A stretch of 64,000 nt of DNA, taken from assembly GCA_903908715.1 (NCBI GenBank), contig CAIVSY010000041.1, positions 11,314 through 75,313 of the forward strand, in the 5' to 3' direction. Made by a program: the position numbers and the translations under genes. Position 1 is the stretch's first letter. Each line of letters starts with the position of its first letter. Below are positions 11,101 through 63,500 of the stretch, piece by piece. Source of the stretch: an uncultured bacterium. Lineage in GTDB: Bacteria > Verrucomicrobiota > Kiritimatiellia > CAIKKV01 > CAITUY01. A model generated the notes under the pieces. The model did not search any database. It worked only from the letters and a program-made list of their open reading frames with translations, and was not told the origin of the DNA.

Positions 11101-12234
11101 TCAGCGAATCACCAGGAACTTCGGGCATTTACAGAGAACCTCGCAACCGTTGCGCGTCACCACGACGGTATCCTCGATACGAACCCCGCCGATGTCCTTA
11201 TAATACAGGCCGGGCTCCACCGTGACCACATTACCCGCGCGAAGGGGCCCCGCCGCACGGGAGACTCCAGGCGCCTCGTGAATTTCCAACCCTACTCCAT
11301 GACCGGTCGAATGAATGTATCCTTCCGGAATGCCGTCGTCGCCCAGGCGGTCCTCGAAGCCGAGTCGCGCAAAGACCGAGCAGACGCCGTCGTGCACAGT
11401 TGAACCGCGGACCCCTGCACGCACAGCAGCCAGCGCCGTCTCCTGGGCACGGCGCACGGCGCGGTGCATCCGAACCAGGGCGGGACCGGCGTACCCCTTC
11501 GCAATGGTGCGTGTGAGGTCCCCCCAGTAACCGCTCCCGATATGCCGCGGAAATATATCCAGGACAATCGGCTGCCCCGCCAGCAGCGGCCCTTCTCCGA
11601 TCCAATGCGGCTGGCTGGATCGCGGCCCGCAGGCCACAATCGGTTCACCGCCCGCACAATCCTGATCCATGAGGACGCGGTTGATCCGCCGCCGCAATCC
11701 CTCCGCCGTCAGCAGGGCCGCTCCTTCGCGCAATTGCCCGCGCGCATCGATCCGCGCGCCCTCGATCACCGCGAAGGCGTGGCGCATCGCCTGCACGGCC
11801 GCACGCTGCACGACGCGGATCTTCTCCACTTGCGCAGGCGTCTTGACCATACGATCCGGACACGGCGGCGCCTTCGCCACAATCACCCGGATTCCCTTCT
11901 TCTCCAACTGCCGCGCAATGCCCACAGGGAAAACAGAAGGCACCATTACGGACCGCAGGCCCTCGCGTTTTGTCAACGCCAGCGCCCATGCGGACATCTT
12001 CCAGCGATCCTTGCGCGACAATCCCAGATCTTCCGGAGCCAGGCTTTCCATGCGCGGATTCTCTTCCCGCGCACGGCCGATTTCCATGCGTGAAACCACC
12101 ATGCTGGTGCGCTTTCCGTGCTTCAAACACACCACAGGATCCGACGATTTGAACTCCGTGACATGCAGAATATCCGCATAAACATTGGGTGTTCCAACCA
12201 TCAGGATCGCGCTTGTTAATTTCTCCCGCTTCAC
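11101..12234 (-). CDS. M24 family Xaa-Pro aminopeptidase/creatinase-like peptidase
   Basis: Metal-binding motifs GYIHSTGHGVGLEIHEAPG and VVTVEPGLYY. Confidence 0.85.
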   Translation of the reverse strand: MKREKLTSAILMVGTPNVYADILHVTEFKSSDPVVCLKHGKRTSMVVSRMEIGRAREENPRMESLAPEDLGLSRKDRWKMSAWALALTKREGLRSVMVPSVFPVGIARQLEKKGIRVIVAKAPPCPDRMVKTPAQVEKIRVVQRAAVQAMRHAFAVIEGARIDARGQLREGAALLTAEGLRRRINRVLMDQDCAGGEPIVACGPRSSQPHWIGEGPLLAGQPIVLDIFPRHIGSGYWGDLTRTIAKGYAGPALVRMHRAVRRAQETALAAVRAGVRGSTVHDGVCSVFARLGFEDRLGDDGIPEGYIHSTGHGVGLEIHEAPGVSRAAGPLRAGNVVTVEPGLYYKDIGGVRIEDTVVVTRNGCEVLCKCPKFLVIR

Positions 12235-12339
12235 ATGCCCCTCGTTGCTAAAGAGTTACACTGCCATAACCGCCGTGTGTCTTTCCGGTTGCCGCCACAT
12301 AGGTTCCAAATGACACCAGGGCGGCCTCCGAAAAATCAA

Positions 12340-12415
12340 CTGAACATACCACATATTGTGGTTTTCCACATACAAAACACTACGGCTCGTATGTTAAAAA
12401 AAAAGCCAAAAAGAC
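12340..12415 (+). promoter_or_regulatory. Candidate DnaA-box / A-tract region upstream of dnaA
   Basis: CCACATATTGTGGTTTTCCACATAC contains TTTTCCACA (8/9) and an inverted CCACA...TGTGG. An A9 tract follows. Confidence 0.4.
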
Positions 12416-12667
12416 TCGGTTTTTACCTTGTCAGTATGGGGTTCGTGGCCTATTGTCCTGCCCTGTCGGGCGCGAGAATAGAAGATAGGTGGCATGTTAA
12501 TAACCTGTTGATAACTCGCAATAACTCGGATCGCGGCCGGCGGGATTTGAACGGGACGAAAAAACGCCCTGAAAAAGCAGGGTGCGGGAATTTACCGATG
12601 CTCAACGTTGCGCGCGAGGATTTTTCGCGCTCTTTTTTTGGAGGCAGTTGTGATCGCAAATGATGCC

Positions 12668-14011
12668 ATGACAGTTTGGAGGCCGGCGTGCGAGCACTTG
12701 AAAAAGCTGCTCCATCCCGATGTCTACCTGCGCTGGATCGAGGTGATCGAGCCGAAGCGGCTGGAAAACGACACTCTTACGCTGGCGGTGGATAACAACT
12801 TCTACCAGACGTGGCTGGAGGAGAATTACCTGCCCCTGATCCAGACGGCCGTTGCAACCGTCTGCGGAGAAAACCTGAAGATCGTCTTCGCCGTCGGACG
12901 CAAGAGTGTTGGCTCCCCGGTTGCGGAAAAATCTGCGCCGGCGCACGTGGAGAAGCCCGTCAAGGCCGCGCCGCGCCGCACACCTTCGGATGTGATCCTG
13001 AATCCGAAGTGTACGTTCGACGAATTCATTGTCGGCGCATCGAACAACATGGCGCATGCCGCGTCTCTTGCGGTGGCGCAGTCTCCGGGCCGCGCTTATA
13101 ACCCGTTGTTCATCTACGGCGGCACCGGGCTGGGCAAGACGCACCTGATGCAGGCGATCGGACACCATGTGCTGCGCAACTCGAACGCGCGCATCTGCTA
13201 TGTCACCTCGGAAACCTTCATCAACGAGTTCATCGAAAGCATCCAGCACAATTCGTTCGTGCAGTTTCGCCGTAAGTACCGGAGCGTGGACCTGCTGTTG
13301 ATTGACGATATCCATTTCCTGACCGGCAAGGAGCGCATGCAGGAGGAGTTCTTCCATACCTTCAATGCGCTGTACGATGCCCATAAGCAGATCGTCATGA
13401 CCAGTGACCGGCCTGCCAGCGAGATCCAGGGCCTGGAGCAGCGGCTGGTTTCCCGCTTCGAGTGGGGCCTGGTCACGGAACTCCAGCAGCCGGATCTGGA
13501 GACCCGCATCGCCATCCTGCGCAACAAGCAGAAGCAGGGCGGCCTCACCCTTTCGGACGAGATCCTTTTCTTCCTGGCGAAGTCCATCCGGTCCAACATC
13601 CGACGGCTGGAAGGAGCCCTGATCCGCCTGACCTCGTATACCTCCCTGGTGAACCGGCCGGTCACACTGGCCGACGCGGAGAATCTGCTGCGCGATACCC
13701 TCGACCAGGAGAAGCAGGAGGCGTTGACCTTCGAGCAGATTATCAAGACCACCGCGGATCATTACGACTTGCGGCTTGTGGATATGACCAGCAAGCGGCG
13801 TCCGGCGGCCATCACGATGCCCCGCCAGGTGGCCATGTATCTCTGCCGGAACCTGACTCCCGCATCCCTGCCGGAAATCGCCTGCGCGTTCGGCAAAACC
13901 CACGCCACGATTCTTCATGCCTGCCGGATCGTGGAGAAGAAAATGGAAACGGATTCCAACCTGCGGCAGGATGTTTCCCACCTGTTCAAGGTGCTGGAGA
14001 AGAAAAGTTGA
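12668..14011 (+). CDS. dnaA: Chromosomal replication initiator protein DnaA
   Basis: AAA+ Walker A GGTGLGKTHL, LLIDDIHFLTGKERMQEEFFHTFNAL, C-terminal DNA-binding domain AFGKTHATILHACRIVEKK. Alternative in-frame GTG at 12650 follows GGAGG. Confidence 0.95.
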   Translation: MTVWRPACEHLKKLLHPDVYLRWIEVIEPKRLENDTLTLAVDNNFYQTWLEENYLPLIQTAVATVCGENLKIVFAVGRKSVGSPVAEKSAPAHVEKPVKAAPRRTPSDVILNPKCTFDEFIVGASNNMAHAASLAVAQSPGRAYNPLFIYGGTGLGKTHLMQAIGHHVLRNSNARICYVTSETFINEFIESIQHNSFVQFRRKYRSVDLLLIDDIHFLTGKERMQEEFFHTFNALYDAHKQIVMTSDRPASEIQGLEQRLVSRFEWGLVTELQQPDLETRIAILRNKQKQGGLTLSDEILFFLAKSIRSNIRRLEGALIRLTSYTSLVNRPVTLADAENLLRDTLDQEKQEALTFEQIIKTTADHYDLRLVDMTSKRRPAAITMPRQVAMYLCRNLTPASLPEIACAFGKTHATILHACRIVEKKMETDSNLRQDVSHLFKVLEKKS

Positions 14012-14017
14012 CAACCG

Positions 14018-14026
14018 TGTGGATAA
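14018..14026 (+). promoter_or_regulatory. Perfect DnaA box TGTGGATAA in dnaA-dnaN intergenic region
   Basis: 9/9 match to the consensus, on the reverse strand. Followed by TTGTTCACA (7/9) and an AT-rich stretch at 14161-14235. Confidence 0.6.
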
Positions 14027-14247
14027 CTTGCAGAAATGGTGTTCATATCGTTGGTTGTTGCAGTTATCATCCGTTGTTCACACAGCTTGAACAGGGGTCA
14101 TGAACAAGGGAAGTGCAGGGGCAGGATCAACCATACCAACGGGTTGCGAGGTTGTTGTTGTTGTTGACAGCATATAAGAAGAGGATGAAGAGAATAAGAT
14201 AGTAAAGAAATACTATTCTTACTCTGTGAAAAGAAGGTGGGGATCGA

Positions 14248-15342
14248 ATGAAAATCGTCATTGGCAAGGACGCGGTTTTATCTGGATTGCAGATGGTTCA
14301 TGGTGTGGTGAATGTCCGTCCCACGCTTCCCGTACTTTCGAATGTTCTTCTGCAGGCGGAAGCGGACAAGTTATGGATGACCACCACGGATTTGGAAGTC
14401 AGCGTACGCTGTCTCGTGGATGCCAAGGTTGGCAAGGCCGGCGGAACCACCCTTCCCGCACGCCGCCTGCTGGGCATTGTGCGCGAACTGCCGGTGGAGA
14501 ACATCGATATTGACGTGGACGACAAGAATAATGCCGTCATCTCCTGCGGATCCGCCTATTTCAAGATCCTGGGTTTGCCCCAGGATGATTTTCCCGCGAT
14601 TGCCGGTTACCAGGGAGGTTCAACCTTCACACTGGAACAGAGAGTGCTCAAGGATATGCTGCAGAAGACCTTCTATGCGGCATCCACCGATGAAACGCGG
14701 TTTATCCTGAACGGCACCCTCTTGAGTTTCAAGGGGAACAAGCTGACCGTGGTGGCAACGGATGGGCGGCGGCTGGCATTGGCGGAGCAGGAACTGGAAT
14801 TCCCAAAGGAATCTGAAGTGGACGCCATCATCCCGACGAAGGCTGTGAATGAAATCCTGCGTATGCTCAAGGATGAGGGAACTGTCAAGGTCCACGTCAC
14901 GAAAAACCAGGCGGGTTTTGAAGTCGAGAATATGGTGCTTACAACCAAGCTGATTGAAGGCACCTATCCGAACTTCCGCCAGGTGATACCGGCCCAGTGC
15001 GAGCATCGCATTGCGGTTGAGCGGGAGAGCCTCCTTACGGCGCTGCGGCGTGTGGCGTTGCTGACCAGCGAGAAATCGAGTTCCGTCCGTTTGACATTCG
15101 GGAAGAGCAAGCTGAAGATCAGCGCTTCATCCCCGGATGTGGGCGAGGCGCATGAATCCGTGGCGATCAAGTACAACGGCAAGGAAATGACCGTGGCGTT
15201 CAATCCTGAATACATCATGGAGCCGCTCAAGAACCTGGCGAATGACGAGATTTATGTCGAGATGACGGATGAACTGAGCCCGGGCGTGATCAAGAGTGAT
15301 GTGCCGTTCATCTATGTGCTGATGCCGATGCGGATTTCGTGA
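14248..15342 (+). CDS. dnaN: DNA polymerase III beta sliding clamp
   Basis: MKIVIGKDAVLSGLQMVHGVV...LLQAEADKLWMTTTDLEVS typical DnaN N-terminus. Roughly 364 aa across three domains. Confidence 0.93.
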   Translation: MKIVIGKDAVLSGLQMVHGVVNVRPTLPVLSNVLLQAEADKLWMTTTDLEVSVRCLVDAKVGKAGGTTLPARRLLGIVRELPVENIDIDVDDKNNAVISCGSAYFKILGLPQDDFPAIAGYQGGSTFTLEQRVLKDMLQKTFYAASTDETRFILNGTLLSFKGNKLTVVATDGRRLALAEQELEFPKESEVDAIIPTKAVNEILRMLKDEGTVKVHVTKNQAGFEVENMVLTTKLIEGTYPNFRQVIPAQCEHRIAVERESLLTALRRVALLTSEKSSSVRLTFGKSKLKISASSPDVGEAHESVAIKYNGKEMTVAFNPEYIMEPLKNLANDEIYVEMTDELSPGVIKSDVPFIYVLMPMRIS

Positions 15343-22718: not shown

Positions 22719-24086
22719 ATGAAGGCGGATTCCGATACCATTGCGGCCATTGCCACGGCTCCGGGCGAAGGGGCTATTTCAGTGGTGCGGGTGTCGGGTC
22801 CCGGCAGTCTGGAAATAGCCGACCGGATTTTCCGCTGCCGGGGTCCCCTGCCCTCGCAACGGGCTGGAGGCAGCTTCGTGTATGGGTATGTCATTCATGA
22901 AGGCACGGTTGCGGACGAAGGGCTGCTCCTGATCTATCGCGCTCCCCGGAGTTATACGCGAGAGGATTCGATCGAGATTCAAGGCCATGGGGGAAGCGCG
23001 GCGTCCCAGCGTATTCTTCGTGCGATCCTGGATGCGGGAGCCCGGCCGGCGAATCCGGGCGAGTTCACCCAGCGTGCGTTTCTCAACGGGCGGATTGATC
23101 TGCTGCAGGCCGAGGCGGTCTTGGATCTGATCAGGGCACGATCCGATCGCGCGGCCGCTGCTGCCTTGGATCAGATGGAGGGTCGGCTTAGCCGCATCTT
23201 TGGTTTGATGTATGACCGGCTTCTCCGATTGGCAGCCGAAATGGAGGCCACATTGGACTTTGGCGACGAGGAATTGCCGCCGACGATTCTTCAGGATGTG
23301 GCCCTGCGTCTACAGGCAGTCGAACAGGAGATGGCTCTTGTTTTATCCACATGGGGGGAAGGCCACCTATTGCGGGAAGGGGCCCTGGTTGTGATTGGCG
23401 GAAAGCCGAATGTTGGCAAATCCACACTATTGAATAGTCTTCTCGGCACCCAGCGCGCCATTGTAAACCAAGTCCCGGGCACAACCCGCGACACAATAGA
23501 GGAACATATGGTCATTGATGGCTATCCGGTCCGAATTGTTGACACGGCTGGATTGCGGGATACAGATTGCGAAGTGGAAGGCGAAGGCATTCGCCGGGCG
23601 CGTCACTCCATACAAAAGGCCGACATTCTGATCTATATGATGGATGCGTCCGGCGAGGTTGATGAAGAGGATCTGGCCGCCTTACGCGCAAAGGATGAAG
23701 GGCATACCATCATTCTGGCCAATAAGAGTGATCTTGCAATAAGCGAGTCAATAAGGTCATATATGACTAAAACGACCGTTATCGCCTGCTCTCTTGTCCG
23801 CAATGAAGGCATTGCAGAAATCAAGCAAAGAATCGCTGATCAATTGAAGTCGCAATCCTCATCTATCCACCATTCCGCGATTTCCGAACGGCATAGGAAA
23901 ATCCTTGTGCTGGCCATCAAGGATATCCAGGAAGCACTCTTGATTCTCCGGGACAAGGACGCGGAGATTCCCTTGGCGTCTTCGCACATCCGTTCCGCCT
24001 TGGAGCATCTCGGAGAGGCCAATGGCAGAGTCTATCACGAGGAACTGCTTCAGAATATTTTTTCCCGCTTCTGCATTGGAAAGTGA
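22719..24086 (+). CDS. mnmE: tRNA modification GTPase MnmE
   Basis: G-domain GKPNVGKSTLLN, DTAG, NKSD. C-terminal CIGK motif. Confidence 0.93.
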   Translation: MKADSDTIAAIATAPGEGAISVVRVSGPGSLEIADRIFRCRGPLPSQRAGGSFVYGYVIHEGTVADEGLLLIYRAPRSYTREDSIEIQGHGGSAASQRILRAILDAGARPANPGEFTQRAFLNGRIDLLQAEAVLDLIRARSDRAAAAALDQMEGRLSRIFGLMYDRLLRLAAEMEATLDFGDEELPPTILQDVALRLQAVEQEMALVLSTWGEGHLLREGALVVIGGKPNVGKSTLLNSLLGTQRAIVNQVPGTTRDTIEEHMVIDGYPVRIVDTAGLRDTDCEVEGEGIRRARHSIQKADILIYMMDASGEVDEEDLAALRAKDEGHTIILANKSDLAISESIRSYMTKTTVIACSLVRNEGIAEIKQRIADQLKSQSSSIHHSAISERHRKILVLAIKDIQEALLILRDKDAEIPLASSHIRSALEHLGEANGRVYHEELLQNIFSRFCIGK

Positions 24087-24101
24087 GGCTGTGATCGGAC
24101 G

Positions 24102-26009
24102 ATGCAGTACGAAGTCATTGTCGTAGGAGCTGGTCATGCAGGATGCGAGGCTGCTCTTGCCGCAGCCAGAATGGGCGCTACAACCGCCTTGATTACCCTT
24201 CAAAGTCAGGCCATTGCTCGAATGTCCTGTAATCCAGCCGTAGGCGGAATCGCCAAATCCCACATCGTTTGTGAGATCGATTCTCTCGGCGGAGAAATGG
24301 CTCGCAACACAGACTATACCGGTATTCAGTTCCGAACGTTGAATACAAAAAAAGGTCCTGCTGTACAAGCGTTTCGCGTGCAATGCGATAAAGATGCCTA
24401 TTCCTTGCGGATGCAGGCCGTCGTCCGCGCCGCACCCAACCTTTCTGTCATTGAGGCCGCAGTCGATGGCCTTCAGTGCCACTCCGGACGCGTCTGCGGC
24501 GTTGTCCTTAACGATCAATCTGTCATTCAGGCCAATACCGTCATTCTTACCACGGGGACATTCCTGCGAGGCATGATCCATATCGGGGCAAAACAATATC
24601 CTGGCGGACGCAATGGAGAGCCCGCCGTTCCCAATCTCAGTCTTCAACTCCGGCAGATGGGCTTCCGGATCGGACGGCTAAAAACAGGAACGCCACCCCG
24701 AATCCGCAAGGAATCTATTGCATGGGAAAAACTGTCGGTTCAGCCCGGCGAAGAACCGCCATCCTTTTTCTCGGATGAAGTCCGACAGGAGCAAATGTTC
24801 CACGTGGAACATTGTGAGTCCGGTTCATCCCTGGAGTCTTCATGCGGAAGATCCGGACAGGCATTGTTCCACGTGGAACAATCGGCGTTACGTCCCTGGA
24901 GCCCGGGATGGTGTCAGGTTCCGTGTTATATAACGCACACGACGACGGAAACGCACGCGATTATTCGGGAGAACCTGTCGAAAAGCTCGATGTATGGGGG
25001 GAACATTACGGGGACGGGTGTGCGATATTGTCCATCGATTGAGGATAAAATCGTTAAATTTGCGGATAAGGATAGCCATCATGTCTTCTTGGAGCCGGAA
25101 GGTCGCACGCATCCGGATATTTATCCAAACGGGACGTCGAATAGCCTTCCTGAGGATATTCAGGAAAGGATGATTCGTTCGATCCCTGGTATGGAGCGGG
25201 CGGTTTTCAGTAAATGGGCTTATGCGATTGAGTATGATTTCTGTGATCCGACTCAGCTTTTCCACTCTTTGGAGTCGAAAATCATCGAGGGGCTTTACAT
25301 GGCCGGGCAAATCAATGGCACAACAGGCTATGAGGAGGCGGCGGGCCAGGGGTTTTTGGCAGGTGTGAATGCTGTTCGTAAATGCCGCGGGCTGAATTCT
25401 TGGACATTGAGCCGTACTGAGTCCTACATCGGGGTATTGATTGATGATCTTGTGACAAAGGGTACGAATGAGCCGTATCGGATGTTCACTTCCCGGGCGG
25501 AATACCGACTGTTGCTTCGGCAGGATAACGCTTGTTTCCGGATGTTGCCGCACGCGAAGGAAATCGGAATTGTCGGTTCGGAGGTATTGAACCGGTGGCA
25601 GAGGCAAGCACAGGAGATCCGGACAGAAATCGCGCGCCTGGAGAAGACGGCCTCACAAGCTGGCACTTTGGCGCAGATGTTAAGGAGGACGGGAGTCTCG
25701 TATGCGGATCTCAATGGCGCCTTGCCCTTGGATTCCAAGGTGGTGGAACAGGTTGAGATCGAAGTCAAATATGCCGGCTATATAACGAGGGAATCACAAC
25801 AGGCTCTTAAGTTGCAACAGATTGATAGTCAGTTAATTCCAAATTGGATTAATTATGATTCCATCCAGACTTTGCGGTATGAATGTCGGGAAAAACTTAA
25901 AAGATTGCGGCCGGAATCCATTGGTCAGGCCGCCCGCATATCTGGTGTAACGCCAGCCGACATAGCCATTCTTGCCATTGTCATAAAAAGAGGAGAAGGG
26001 ACTAGGTAG
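24102..26009 (+). CDS. mnmG: tRNA uridine 5-carboxymethylaminomethyl modification enzyme MnmG (GidA)
   Basis: FAD motif VIVVGAGHAGCEAA. QVPCYITHT and SRAEYRLLLRQDNA conserved blocks. Carries an approximately 36-aa insertion relative to the canonical protein (see findings). Confidence 0.93.
   Translation: MQYEVIVVGAGHAGCEAALAAARMGATTALITLQSQAIARMSCNPAVGGIAKSHIVCEIDSLGGEMARNTDYTGIQFRTLNTKKGPAVQAFRVQCDKDAYSLRMQAVVRAAPNLSVIEAAVDGLQCHSGRVCGVVLNDQSVIQANTVILTTGTFLRGMIHIGAKQYPGGRNGEPAVPNLSLQLRQMGFRIGRLKTGTPPRIRKESIAWEKLSVQPGEEPPSFFSDEVRQEQMFHVEHCESGSSLESSCGRSGQALFHVEQSALRPWSPGWCQVPCYITHTTTETHAIIRENLSKSSMYGGNITGTGVRYCPSIEDKIVKFADKDSHHVFLEPEGRTHPDIYPNGTSNSLPEDIQERMIRSIPGMERAVFSKWAYAIEYDFCDPTQLFHSLESKIIEGLYMAGQINGTTGYEEAAGQGFLAGVNAVRKCRGLNSWTLSRTESYIGVLIDDLVTKGTNEPYRMFTSRAEYRLLLRQDNACFRMLPHAKEIGIVGSEVLNRWQRQAQEIRTEIARLEKTASQAGTLAQMLRRTGVSYADLNGALPLDSKVVEQVEIEVKYAGYITRESQQALKLQQIDSQLIPNWINYDSIQTLRYECREKLKRLRPESIGQAARISGVTPADIAILAIVIKRGEGTR
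24795..24882. repeat. Paired 18-bp perfect palindromes (ATGTTCCACGTGGAACAT / TTGTTCCACGTGGAACAA) inside mnmG
   Basis: Two copies of the TGTTCCACGTGGAACA core 70 bp apart, with internal GTCCGG...CCGGAC symmetry. In frame, it encodes MFHVEH...LFHVEQ. Confidence 0.8.
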
Positions 26010-26105
26010 TCATAGCTGACTTATTCGTCGTGTTTAGTTGTTGAATTGTATTATGGCCGGATGCGGGTTGGTTTCGGACTGCGCTTCGGCGGAAAGGAAG
26101 GGAAA

Positions 26106-60538: not shown

Positions 60539-63500
60539 ATGTTCACCCGGAAGCTCACGTTTTTCGCCGCCCTTGTGGCTGTTGCCGCCGCGGTCACCAC
60601 CGCGTCCGCCCTGAGTTGGCAGAAGGTCTACGAAGCCCGCGACAAGGGTCTGCCGAAGACCGCCATCGAGGAGCTCAAGCCGATCATCGCGGATGCCATA
60701 CAGGGCCGCAGGCACGCCGAGGCGATCAAGGCCATCTGCATGAAGATCGCCTTCGAGGGCAACATCGAGGGCAACAAGCCGGAGGAGAAGATCACGCGGC
60801 TGGAGGCCGAAATCGCCCAGGCCCCGGCGGAGATGAAGCCCCTGATGGAAGCCGTTCTGGCCAACTGGTACTGGCACTACTTCCAGCACAACCGCTGGCG
60901 GTTCCAGCAGCGCACGCAGACCGCCGAGGCGCCGGGCAAGGACTTCACCACGTGGGATCTGCCCCGGATCCTGGCCGAGATCGACAGGCATTTCACCGTC
61001 GCGCTTGCCGGCGAAAAGCTTCTCAAATCCACGCCCGTGGAGCAGTACAACGACCTGCTGGAAAAGGGCTCTGTTTCGGACGCCTACCGTCCCACCTTGT
61101 TCGACTTCCTGGCGCATGAGGCCCTGCAGTTCTACCAGGCCGGTGAACAGGGCGCCGCGGCGGCGGAGGATGAGTTCGAGATCGCGGACGATAATCCGGT
61201 GTTCGGGACGGTGGATGAGTTCCTGAAGTGGAGGCCGGGGTTGTTCCCGTCGCAATCCGTTCCACGGAAGGACAAGGCTGGAGAAACGCCCGGTCCCTCT
61301 CCTCTTGCGGGAGAGGGTCAAGGTGAGGGGGATTCGCCCAAGCTCAAGGCGATCCGGCTGTTCCAGAACCTGCTGGCCTTCCATCGCAACGACGGCGACA
61401 AGACGGCCTTGATGGACGCCGACCTATGGCGGCTGACGTTCGGCAAGAACCAGGCGGTGGGGCCCGCCGTGAACGACCGGTACAAGGCCGCGCTCCAGCG
61501 GTTCGCGGAGCAGGGGTCCAGCCACGAGATTTCCGCCCGGGCCCTCCACCAGCTCGCGCTCCTGCTGAACGAGGAGGACCAGCCCGCCGAAGCGCATGCG
61601 GTGGCGAAACGCGGTGCCGAGGCCCACCCGAAGAGCGTCGGCGGTATCTGGTGCGCGAACCTTGTGCGGCAGATCGAGTCGGAGCAGGTCAATATCAGCA
61701 CCGAGCGGGTCTGGAATGAACCATGGCCAACGATTTCCGTCCAGTACAAGAACCTGACCCAGGCATACTTCCGCGCCGTACCCTACGACTTCGATCGGTT
61801 CATGTCCCGTCAGCGCTGGGGGTTCGGATATGGATGGGATGAGAAGTTCCACCAGGAACTCCTGACCGCCAAGCCTGCCGCGGCGTGGAACACGGCCCTG
61901 CCTGCCACCGCGGATTTCCGCATGCGGACCGAGAAGGTGCCGGTAGCCCGGGACCTCAAGCCGGGCTTCTATTTCATTCTCGCCAGCCACGACCCTGCGT
62001 TTGGCAAGAAGGACAACCAGGTTTCCATGGCGTATGTGTGGGTGAGCGAACTGGCGCTGGTGGTCCGGCAACGTCATTCGGAAGGCGCGTTGGATGGGTT
62101 CGTGCTCAAGGCCCTGACCGGCGAGCCGGTGGCCGGGGCCACGGTGCGGTCCTGGGCGCGCGACCGCGAGGGCTGGATGAAGCCCGCCTCGCAGGTACAG
62201 ACCGACACCAACGGCATGTTCCGGTTTGATGTCGCCGGGGACAGCCGCCAGCTCTTCCTTCTGGCGCAGAGCGACGGCCAGGCGGTGTCCGGCGACAATG
62301 AGTACTACGTGGCTCACGGCGGCAAGGTGGAGCCCCACCCCCAGGCCGTTTTCTTTACCGATCGTTCCCTGTACCGGCCCGGGCAGACTATCCAGTACAA
62401 GGGTATCTGCTATCGCGCGGACTCGGAGAAGAACGAATACCGGACGTTGGAGGGTCAGACCCTGACGGTCGTCTTGCGGGATCCGAACGGGAGGGAAGTA
62501 GCCAGGCAACAGCAGAAGTGCAACGACTACGGATCCTTCTCGGGAAGCTTCACCGCGCCCGGGGGGACGGTGACGGGCCGCATGACGCTGCAGGTGCTGG
62601 ATGGTCCGTCCGGGGCGACGAGTATCAGCGTGGAGGAATACAAGCGGCCGAAGTTCCAGGTGGAATTGGCGGCGCCGAAGGAAGCCGCGAAACTCGGTTC
62701 GGAGGTTTCCCTGTCCGGCAAGGCCACCGCCTACACCGGCGCGGCCATCGGCGGAGCGAAGGTCAAGTGGCGTGTCGTGCGCGAAGTGCAGTTCCCGCCC
62801 TGGTGCTGGTGGGGGCGCTGGTTCCTGCCGCCCGGCAGCGAGAGCCGTAACATCGCCCACGGCACGGCCACAACCGGTCCGGATGGATCCTTCACCGTGG
62901 TATTCCCGGCGGTGCCTGACCTTTCGGTGGTGGAGAAGACCGAGCCCGTGTTCTGCTTCAAGGTCCATGCCGACGTGACCGACACCACGGGTGAGACGCG
63001 GTCTGACAGCCGGACGGTGAAAGCCGGGTACACCGCACTCGCGGCGAATCTCCGCGCCGGCGAATGGCAGACGCCGGACGTGCCGGTGGAATGGACGATC
63101 CAGACGCAATCGCTCGACGGCGATCCGCAAGCCGCTGCGGGCGAGGTTAAGGTGTATGCGCTCAAGCAACCCGGCCGGGTCGAGCGTCCGCCGCTCGAAC
63201 AGGGGCGCCCCTACGGTTTTCCCCATTCCGATCGGTGGCTCGTCGAACCCGAGCCGGACCCTTCGAATGCGGATTCATGGGAATTGGGCGAAGTGGTGGC
63301 CCGGCAGGAGTTCAAGACCGACGCCACGGGAACGGTCAAGCTGACCACGCCTCTCAAAGCCGGGATCTACCGGGCGATGCTGGAGACCCGGGACCGGTTC
63401 GGGAAGGCGGTCACCGCCCGGCAGACCTTGCAGGTCCTGGATCCGAAGGGCACCCGCTACCCGGTCCGGTTGGCGAGCCACTTCGCCGCGCCGAAGTGGT

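Follow-up and report, generated by a model that had tools for sequence, protein, structure and literature searches.

Origin-proximal palindromes in a predicted disordered loop of MnmG are probable chromosomal parS sites in an uncultured Kiritimatiellia bacterium

The mnmG gene of an uncultured bacterium of the Kiritimatiellia lies within a 64-kb stretch of DNA, the whole of which we analysed and refer to as the window. It directly follows mnmE, an arrangement kept in most PVC-group loci, and its coding sequence contains two short palindromes in a region where the protein is longer than its canonical counterparts. The features of the locus are as follows.

12608..14011, + strand: dnaA, identified by Pfam; lies 10.8-12.2 kb from the palindrome pair and marks the region of the replication origin
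14248..15342, + strand: dnaN (beta clamp), identified by Pfam; downstream of dnaA
22719..24086, + strand: mnmE (trmE), identified by Pfam; directly upstream of mnmG and encoding the partner enzyme of MnmG
24102..26009, + strand: mnmG (gidA), 635 aa, intact; identified by Pfam, PDB alignment and an AlphaFold model
24774..24914, + strand: lineage-specific insert of MnmG, residues 225-271; predicted disordered loop in insertion domain 2
24796..24811, no strand assigned: putative parS site 1, TGTTCCACGTGGAACA; encodes M-F-H-V-E-H, MnmG residues 232-237
24812..24864, + strand: spacer between the two sites, 53 bp; translated as the filler peptide CESGSSLESSCGRSGQA; unconserved
24865..24880, no strand assigned: putative parS site 2, TGTTCCACGTGGAACA; encodes L-F-H-V-E-Q, MnmG residues 255-260

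The identity of the host gene is clear from its domains and residues. The GIDA FAD domain is matched with E = 3e-154, the match being split at residue ~233, and the C-terminal helical domains are recovered as GIDA_C_1st and SAM_GIDA_C. Comparison with MnmG structures in the PDB gives E = 4e-171, and the catalytic cysteines C43 and C310, equivalent to C47 and C277 of E. coli, are invariant. When the protein is aligned to 3CES, 3CP2 and 9HIP, the insert occupies 47 residues (225-271) at a point where E. coli has 10. This leaves ~37 additional residues, in good agreement with the first-pass annotation, which had estimated about 36 extra residues and a canonical gap of about 10. Domain boundaries of the E. 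coli enzyme place the insert in insertion domain 2. In the AF2 model, which has an overall pLDDT of 91.2, residues 233-257 form the sole segment below 50, and residues 234-274 are without secondary structure. The prediction is thus of a disordered loop within an otherwise intact enzyme, and both the gap in the structure alignment and the single low-pLDDT segment favor the earlier proposal that an insertion is tolerated in a surface loop. That proposal also called mnmG essential; the gene is important in E. coli, yet is not strictly essential there.

The two palindromes, reported previously as perfect 18-bp elements with a common core lying in-frame in mnmG, are both present as described, ATGTTCCACGTGGAACAT at 24795-24812 and TTGTTCCACGTGGAACAA at 24864-24881. 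Each remains perfect when widened to 20 bp, giving AATGTTCCACGTGGAACATT (24794-24813) for site 1 and ATTGTTCCACGTGGAACAAT (24863-24882) for site 2. The 16-mer TGTTCCACGTGGAACA that they share occurs exactly twice in the window, with 69 bp from start to start. When up to two mismatches are allowed, the 14-mer core is found four times in the window compared with 0.31 expected by chance, a count reached by none of 100 shuffles. The internal secondary symmetry noted earlier for the pair is also real, and takes the form of 35-nt inverted arms that are 83% complementary, a symmetry that is not kept in relatives. In addition, a weak direct repeat (81%) follows each site (24821-24836 and 24886-24901), which predicts tandem duplication, and the second site may have arisen by duplication.

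Such an arrangement could be read as a mobile palindromic element, similar to the Rickettsia RPEs or a MITE, that has inserted in-frame into mnmG. Indeed, the ~88-bp segment bracketed by the palindromes has complementary arms and, compared with canonical MnmG, has been inserted in-frame. Elements of these families are marked by a shared body of ~100-150 bp, by many dispersed copies, and by target-site duplication with presence/absence polymorphism, none of which is seen here. Instead, the repeat is confined to the 16-20 bp palindrome. Neither the window nor any of 43 related loci contains a second copy of the spacer, which is not conserved even among four genomes with the same 69-bp spacing. 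No dispersed copies of the 16-mer exist in the 64-kb window beyond the mnmG pair, and the sequences flanking the palindromes (GAGCA and CGGCG) carry no target-site duplication. Site 1 is moreover positionally orthologous in 19/19 genomes, and the palindrome itself is a canonical parS sequence. We therefore consider a mobile origin exceedingly unlikely, and the proposed likeness to RPEs or MITEs is not supported.

The chromosomal parS consensus is TGTTNCACGTGAAACA (PMC7022226), and the 16-mer in the window matches it at 16 of 16 positions. [quoted passage not shown] For whole-genome listing of such sites, the match pattern is TGTTNCACGTGNAACA. From this match and the evidence set out below, the palindromes are very probably chromosomal parS, and would constitute an origin-proximal, putative ParB loading site within a permissive loop of MnmG.

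The position of the pair relative to the replication origin is consistent with this assignment. In the window, the sign of the GC skew switches at 12-20 kb. DnaA boxes are in excess (19 observed compared with 6.5 expected), with box-like sites clustered at dnaA (12362, 12506, 12787, 13777 and 14018). Similarly, site-bearing mnmG genes are located 0.1-2 kb from dnaA in the related loci L042-L045 and no more than 10 kb from it in L006 and L011. The origin-proximal location expected for chromosomal parS is thus found in the window and in relatives alike.

The distribution of the motif among relatives was examined in a set of related loci assembled in part by means of a peptide pattern containing the motif, although this pattern is codon-degenerate and independent protein sets agree with the results. 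All 18 PVC-group loci have site 1 at the same orthologous position, and it occupies the same alignment column in 19/19 orthologues. A second copy in the loop, either perfect or with one mismatch, is present in 12 of the 18 loci at variable spacings of 33-156 bp, which show no obvious periodicity beyond multiples of three within one frame. Among the 120 closest MnmG clusters, every loop carries one or two sites, and 110 carry two loop motifs. Perfect 16-mers are associated exclusively with mnmG. Of 45 copies counted across 22 related loci, 41 fall inside the gene (45 kb of sequence) and four in the flanks (274 kb), each of these four being no more than 80 bp from an mnmG end.

Some relatives have three to five sites and loops that exceed the normal length by up to ~410 residues, and these are always beside dnaA. 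Median loop length is 76 aa for proteins with no site, 112 aa for those with one or two, and 209-485 aa for those with four or five. Loops with one site have at least ~16 extra residues, those with two have ~37, and those with four or five have up to ~410. Growth of the loop seems to have occurred as parS-containing segments were inserted or duplicated, up to a total of five sites in some relatives. Only one of the long-loop proteins, P0132, carries a taxon name, that of a 'Bacteroidales bacterium' MAG that may be mis-binned, so we state the taxonomic range of long loops with caution.

Because the sites are translated, their conservation might reflect a functional peptide repeat, FHVE[H/Q], that serves for example as a metal-binding or interaction site and is maintained by amino-acid selection. 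As this explanation would predict, FHVE[HQ] is found in 120/120 of the closest homologues, and the full [MLV]FHVE[HQ] in 116 of them. The codons argue strongly otherwise. In 19 mnmG orthologues whose proteins are 54-75% identical, the site 1 codons TTC-CAC-GTG-GAA are invariant in every sequence. Of 181 degenerate columns in which the residue is invariant, synonymous change is absent from just four, which are precisely the F-H-V-E columns of site 1, whereas the remaining 177 all vary. The residues on either side vary as M/L/V and H/Q, which is exactly the range allowed by NTGTTCCACGTGGAACAN. Furthermore, other lineages translate the same 16-mer in all three frames, as FHVE, VPRGT or CSTWN (verified on DNA), and the word also lies 17-78 bp outside the mnmG ORF in L010, L011, L015 and L045. 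The segment is also predicted to be disordered. Peptide-level selection on FHVEH is refuted by the codon and frame evidence, and a functional peptide repeat has almost no likelihood as the explanation. Given the invariant codons, the use of three frames, the copies outside the ORF and the unconserved spacer, purifying selection is acting on the DNA word and not on the peptide. Such DNA-level conservation, independent of coding context, is what is expected of parS.

Selection on nucleic acid could in principle operate on the transcript, with the palindromes forming a long mRNA hairpin that controls the translation or stability of mnmG. The RNA of region 24780-24900 has a folding energy of -58.1 kcal/mol (z = -5.5 relative to shuffled sequences). 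However, the consensus fold consists solely of pairing between one palindrome and the other, which any two identical palindromes would show automatically. Covariation contributes a term of -0.12, the spacer stem is unconserved, and no compensatory changes that preserve pairing while altering the 16-mer are seen. Many relatives also have a single loop site, or sites outside the transcript body. We accordingly judge an RNA-level element to be very improbable, and for want of covariation we also rejected the idea that the spacer forms a conserved RNA structure or cruciform. Rfam reports no family above threshold for 24000-26100; a match to a miRNA hairpin is spurious (25.6 bits compared with a gathering score of 94).

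A more serious competitor is an operator for a protein other than ParB, such as a Noc-like ParB paralogue or a CACGTG-binding regulator, that would control mnmG or some origin function. The strict association of the sites with mnmG could suggest gene-specific regulation, and parB was not found in the sequence sampled. Specifically, neither parA nor parB was detected in the 64-kb window by Pfam searches of ~50 ORFs or by tblastn with the ParA, ParB and RsmG proteins of the Hyphomonadaceae locus L029. The same three queries gave no match in the flanking sequence retrieved for the PVC-group loci L001-L018 (up to 10 kb on either side), and ParB is absent from the gene table of the 6.6 kb to the left of the window, where all genes are for glycosyltransferases. 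Against such an operator, the match to canonical parS extends over all 16 positions, well beyond the CACGTG core, and the sites are origin-proximal and vary in number from one to five, as in parS clusters. To our knowledge, the ParB paralogues that have acquired new functions have also diverged in site specificity. Moreover, motifs of the same family are found in Proteobacterial loci as classical parS flanking mnmG, next to an mnmG-rsmG-parA-parB operon. Overall, we regard a non-ParB operator as improbable. With parA and parB not found in the sampled sequence, a cognate ParB in the source genome is assumed.

If the palindromes are parS, then characterised ParABS systems suggest how they would operate. 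ParB dimers would nucleate on each 16-bp palindrome through their helix-turn-helix domain, then bind CTP, close as clamps, and slide onto flanking DNA. By homology, the resulting partition complex might cover ~10-20 kb, including dnaA and oriC, and ParA and/or SMC would act on it to separate newly replicated origins. The sites would be housed in-frame in a disordered, functionally neutral loop of MnmG insertion domain 2, with the gene staying adjacent to the origin. In this arrangement the DNA word would set the peptide [M/L/V]FHVE[H/Q], with translated filler making up the remainder of the loop.

Many aspects of this arrangement are shared with known chromosomal parS. As for ParABS of B. subtilis, whose consensus is likewise TGTTNCACGTGAAACA, the same 16-bp palindrome is present near the origin in more than one clustered copy. 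Unlike at the usual ParABS loci, parAB is not adjacent, and the putative sites that were sampled are embedded in one ORF. A further departure from chromosomal parS generally is that the mnmG sites reside in an insertion present only in site-bearing lineages. Overlap with coding sequence, such that a DNA word fixes a short peptide, is not in itself unusual: nine of ten parS sites of P. aeruginosa are in coding sequences, and L029 has parS within rsmG and parB, encoding 'VSRET'. Those intragenic sites overlap pre-existing protein sequence, whereas the sites in mnmG come with extra disordered residues, and thus the protein seems to have been lengthened to carry centromere sites. The use of the DNA word in all three frames among mnmG lineages is a second difference from P. 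aeruginosa and L029.

Multiple close parS sites near oriC are also found in the clusters of Myxococcus xanthus, Streptomyces coelicolor and Listeria (~20 or more sites), the first of which includes a GGAAC variant. These clusters extend across numerous genes or intergenic regions over many kilobases, whereas one to five sites are confined here to a single protein loop of 0.1-1.2 kb. With RPEs and MITEs, the sites share only that palindromic DNA is translated in-frame within a part of a housekeeping protein's surface that tolerates it; they differ in holding an orthologous position across a deep clade, and in that the palindrome is a putative protein-binding site rather than the terminus of a mobile element.

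Although parS and intragenic parS are textbook subjects, a protein lengthened to carry such sites seems to be undescribed. A full-text literature search, with the survey of Livny et al. (2007) lying outside its scope, returned no description of one, and nothing relevant to ParB or parS in Kiritimatiellia and Lentisphaerae emerged from the literature. For annotators, the finding carries a warning against taking these 'repeats' and insertions in MnmG for mobile elements or errors of assembly. Conversely, xFHVEx, VPRGT or CSTWN in the MnmG loop may provide a simple marker for the origin and centromere in MAGs of uncultured Kiritimatiellia, Lentisphaeria and related groups.

A stronger reading is that the MnmG loop is a dedicated, heritable 'centromere cassette', in which the chromosome's only high-affinity parS sites are gathered in one origin-linked ORF and selection on centromere copy number drives in-frame expansion of the disordered loop, from one to five sites and up to ~410 extra residues. 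We consider this version unlikely as it stands. If true, there would be a mechanistic link between centromere function and the expression of mnmG. ParB clamps could, for instance, be evicted or reloaded as transcription passes through the sites, or mnmG could be throttled where ParB occupies them, tying the modification of wobble uridines to the cycle of replication and segregation.

Why the number of parS sites varies, and what drives their clustering, are listed among the open questions of the ParABS field (PMC7333895), and a natural series of one to five sites in one locus could address both. More generally, a cis-acting segregation signal would here set protein sequence and, across a whole clade, drive the insertion of a loop into an enzyme that is universally conserved, making mnmG-parS an unusually clean natural case of a DNA-level function shaping a protein.

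The two palindromes have the sequences, positions and common core described in the first-pass annotation, and both lie in frame within the mnmG ORF.

24102-26009: mnmG, 635 aa, directly downstream of mnmE; Pfam GIDA match (E = 3e-154), interrupted at residue ~233
24795-24812: palindrome 1, ATGTTCCACGTGGAACAT, a perfect 20-bp palindrome when extended (24794-24813); translated as MFHVEH
24864-24881: palindrome 2, TTGTTCCACGTGGAACAA, a perfect 20-bp palindrome when extended (24863-24882); translated as LFHVEQ

The window (64 kb) holds exactly two copies of the 16-mer common to both, TGTTCCACGTGGAACA, whose starts are 69 bp apart; judged by its sequence, this 16-mer is a chromosomal parS site. The chromosomal parS consensus is TGTTNCACGTGAAACA, with the variant TGTTCCACGTGGAACG in Myxococcus (PMC7022226), and the P. 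aeruginosa sites parS2 and parS3, which are the highest-affinity ParB sites there, are exactly TGTTCCACGTGGAACA (PMC4368675). In that species, segregation needs one of the four oriC-proximal parS sites, and any one of them is enough; 9 of 10 parS sites lie within coding sequences (PMC4368675). With two or fewer mismatches allowed, the 14-mer core matches the window 4 times versus 0.31 expected by chance, a count reached in 0 of 100 shuffles. Two matches carrying 2 mismatches each, GTTCCACCAGGAAC and GTTCCAGGTGGAAT (61846-61859, 62653-62666), either bind ParB weakly or have perhaps arisen by chance. Both fall inside a single minus-strand ORF (61424-63226) that has no Pfam match and whose base composition is unusual, with 83% GC at its first codon positions.

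The same annotation had counted about 36 extra residues here relative to about 10 in canonical MnmG. When the window protein is aligned with the solved structures of E. coli MnmG, its residues 225-271 (47 aa) face 10 E. coli residues, and thus an insert of ~37 aa is real. Once the 20-residue tag on the PDB chains is allowed for, the residues replaced are native E. coli ~229-238. These belong to insertion domain 2, which comprises 161-174 and 193-348, and they precede both MnmG-specific motif 1 (273-287) and the catalytic C277 (PMC12397908). The AlphaFold2 model, for which 58 sequences were aligned, is of high confidence overall (mean pLDDT 91.2, pTM 0.91). Its pLDDT falls below 50 in one stretch only, 233-257, and residues 234-274 have no predicted secondary structure. 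Both catalytic cysteines (C43 and C310 in the window protein) are invariant. The enzyme accordingly looks intact and the insert is predicted to be a disordered excursion. The GC content of mnmG (51.9%) and mnmE (55.5%) is markedly lower across 22719-26009 than that of the window (60.2%), and a GC3-based gene filter rejected mnmG; either conserved-gene codon constraint or foreign origin could account for this.

Codon usage distinguishes constraint on the DNA from constraint on the peptide. We aligned the window's mnmG codon by codon with its counterparts in 18 PVC-group loci (54-75% protein identity), which come from MAGs carrying the label Verrucomicrobiota, Kiritimatiellia, Victivallales or Lentisphaerae. 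Among 181 columns with invariant residues and degenerate codons, only 4 use a single codon in 19/19 sequences: F233 TTC, H234 CAC, V235 GTG and E236 GAA, which together constitute parS site 1. All other invariant F, H, V and E columns vary synonymously, and the residues beside the motif vary as M/L/V and H/Q, exactly as NTGTTCCACGTGGAACAN permits. One locus-fetching pattern (QEQMFHVE) included the motif, but it was codon-degenerate and therefore cannot account for the codon invariance. Two protein sets, collected independently of the loci, agree with them. FHVE[HQ] is present in the loop in 120/120 of the closest 90%-identity clusters, 110 of which have two loop motifs. At 50% identity (150 representatives listed), 117 had both anchor motifs of the loop identifiable, and 20 of these 117 have the motif in the loop; the motif-bearing loops are mostly longer to match. 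In other lineages the parS word is also read as VPRGT or CSTWN, as verified on DNA. The codon and frame evidence excludes selection of FHVE as a protein motif, and the sequences indicate that selection acts on the DNA.

The number of sites varies among the fetched loci (L numbers) as follows.

L042: five 16-mers in the loop, each of them perfect and read in the FHVE frame
L043: five sites in the loop, four perfect, in two frames
L044: four sites in the loop, three perfect, in the CSTWN frame
L045: two sites in the loop and a further one 73 bp ahead of the start codon
L010, L011: second copy 17-20 bp past the stop codon
L015: one copy 78 bp upstream of mnmG

Across 22 loci, 41 perfect 16-mers are located inside mnmG (45 kb total) versus 4 in 274 kb of flanking DNA, each of the latter less than 80 bp from one end of the gene. 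Loops lengthen as sites increase: measured from KTGTP to RYCPS, the median length is 76 aa without a site and 112 aa with 1-2 sites, and lengths of 209-485 aa go with 4-5 sites; the spacers are low-complexity and S/N/D-rich. Among MnmG homologues, P0128 (942 aa) lacks the canonical motif in its loop segment of 351 aa, but this segment contains VSTWK twice, which may represent a variant site. The peptide-level decayed copies MFYVEH and VMSHMEQ in P0121 (637 aa) suggest site erosion in some lineages. The five-site MnmG of L042 (P0132; GCA_017454205.1, JAFTDK010000013.1) is labelled a 'Bacteroidales bacterium' MAG by NCBI. It ranks among the best 50%-identity representatives for the PVC-type query (~52% identity), and its locus shares the mnmG-dnaA-dnaN layout of L043. 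Either this 10-kb contig is mis-binned or the phenomenon is taxonomically wider, and the edges of the taxonomic range are accordingly uncertain.

The palindromes had originally been likened to Rickettsia RPEs or a MITE-like mobile insertion, a reading that the comparisons do not support. Only the palindrome is repeated: the 53-bp spacer has no second copy in the window or 43 loci, and it is unconserved across four genomes with equal 69-bp spacing in which the 16-mers are invariant. Target-site duplication is absent, and site 1 occupies the orthologous position in 19/19 genomes. Alternatively, the region might act as an RNA structure, since it folds to -58 kcal/mol (z = -5.5). However, the consensus fold consists solely of the automatic pairing of two identical palindromes, the spacer lacks covariation, and Rfam returns nothing above threshold. 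These palindromes very probably function as parS and are not part of a mobile element.

The window contains the replication origin, and the chromosomal origin region is 12235-15342.

12608-14011: dnaA
14248-15342: dnaN

The GC skew switches sign between about 12 and 20 kb, and DnaA-box-like 9-mers (19 observed versus 6.5 expected in the window) cluster around dnaA, with sites at 12362, 12506, 12787, 13777 and 14018, the last being a perfect TTATCCACA in the dnaA-dnaN intergenic region. With the origin so placed, the palindromes lie 10.8-12.2 kb from dnaA. In relatives, mnmG is 0.1-2 kb (L042-L045) or at most 10 kb (L006, L011) from dnaA. Three 1-mismatch DnaA-box-like 9-mers in 90 bp of mnmG (25040-25129) follow parS site 2 at a distance of 160-250 bp. 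They overlap codons of conserved IEDK/ADKD residues and so probably reflect the coding sequence by coincidence. A 470-aa minus-strand ORF (12602-14014), antisense to dnaA with nearly identical coordinates and no Pfam match, is most likely a mechanical shadow ORF of GC-rich DNA and not a gene.

In the Proteobacterial loci fetched, motifs of the parS family lie on the flanks of mnmG, next to the classical mnmG-rsmG-parA-parB operon. Achromobacter marplatensis (L023, 9044-9929) carries ten parS-type 16-mers (7 perfect, 3 with one mismatch) in a ~900-bp stretch that directly precedes mnmG; this array is the intergenic equivalent of those inside the gene in the PVC-group loop. In 4/5 Hyphomonadaceae loci, copies precede mnmG by about 97-100 bp, and L029 from this family has copies at 11895 and 13983, in the rsmG N-terminus and in parB, that are read as VSRET. 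Intragenic copies read in this manner also occur in L025, L032 and L040. VSRET is a further frame or variant of the parS word, and this suggests that the widespread RsmG peptide is itself a parS footprint. At the peptide level, translated parS words are seen in MnmG proteins P0152, P0154, P0144, P0129, P0230, P0242 and P0262, either at the very start of the protein (MFHVEQ, residue 1; FHVKH, residue 6; VPRGT, residue 3) or at the C-terminus (VSRET or VPRGT at ~614). Thus, parS-mnmG overlap probably arose several times, at different positions.

Less probably, a DNA-binding protein other than ParB might use the sites, since no ParA or ParB genes are present in the window, in the 6.6 kb beyond its left end or, by tblastn, in the fetched flanks of L001-L018 (the PVC-group loci). 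If ParB is the ligand, its dimers would nucleate on both palindromes and, after binding CTP, form closed clamps that slide across the adjoining ~10-20 kb, including oriC and dnaA. ParA and/or SMC would then act on the ParB complex to separate sister origins. Nucleation, CTP-dependent clamp closure, sliding and ParA or SMC action are general properties of ParABS systems. The insertion-domain-2 loop would tolerate arbitrary sequence, and mnmG may house the sites because it is ancestrally origin- and par-linked and still lies beside dnaA in the clade. A weak direct repeat trails each site (24821-24836 versus 24886-24901, 81%), hinting that the second site was born by tandem duplication. The ParABS mechanism is described in PMC7333895.

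Both parS and intragenic parS are well known already. A full-text literature search, whose reach excluded a key 2007 survey, found no prior report of the present arrangement. What appears to be new is that, throughout a clade, a universal enzyme has an in-frame loop insertion that serves to hold between one and five centromere sites, can be read in any frame and always lies beside the origin.
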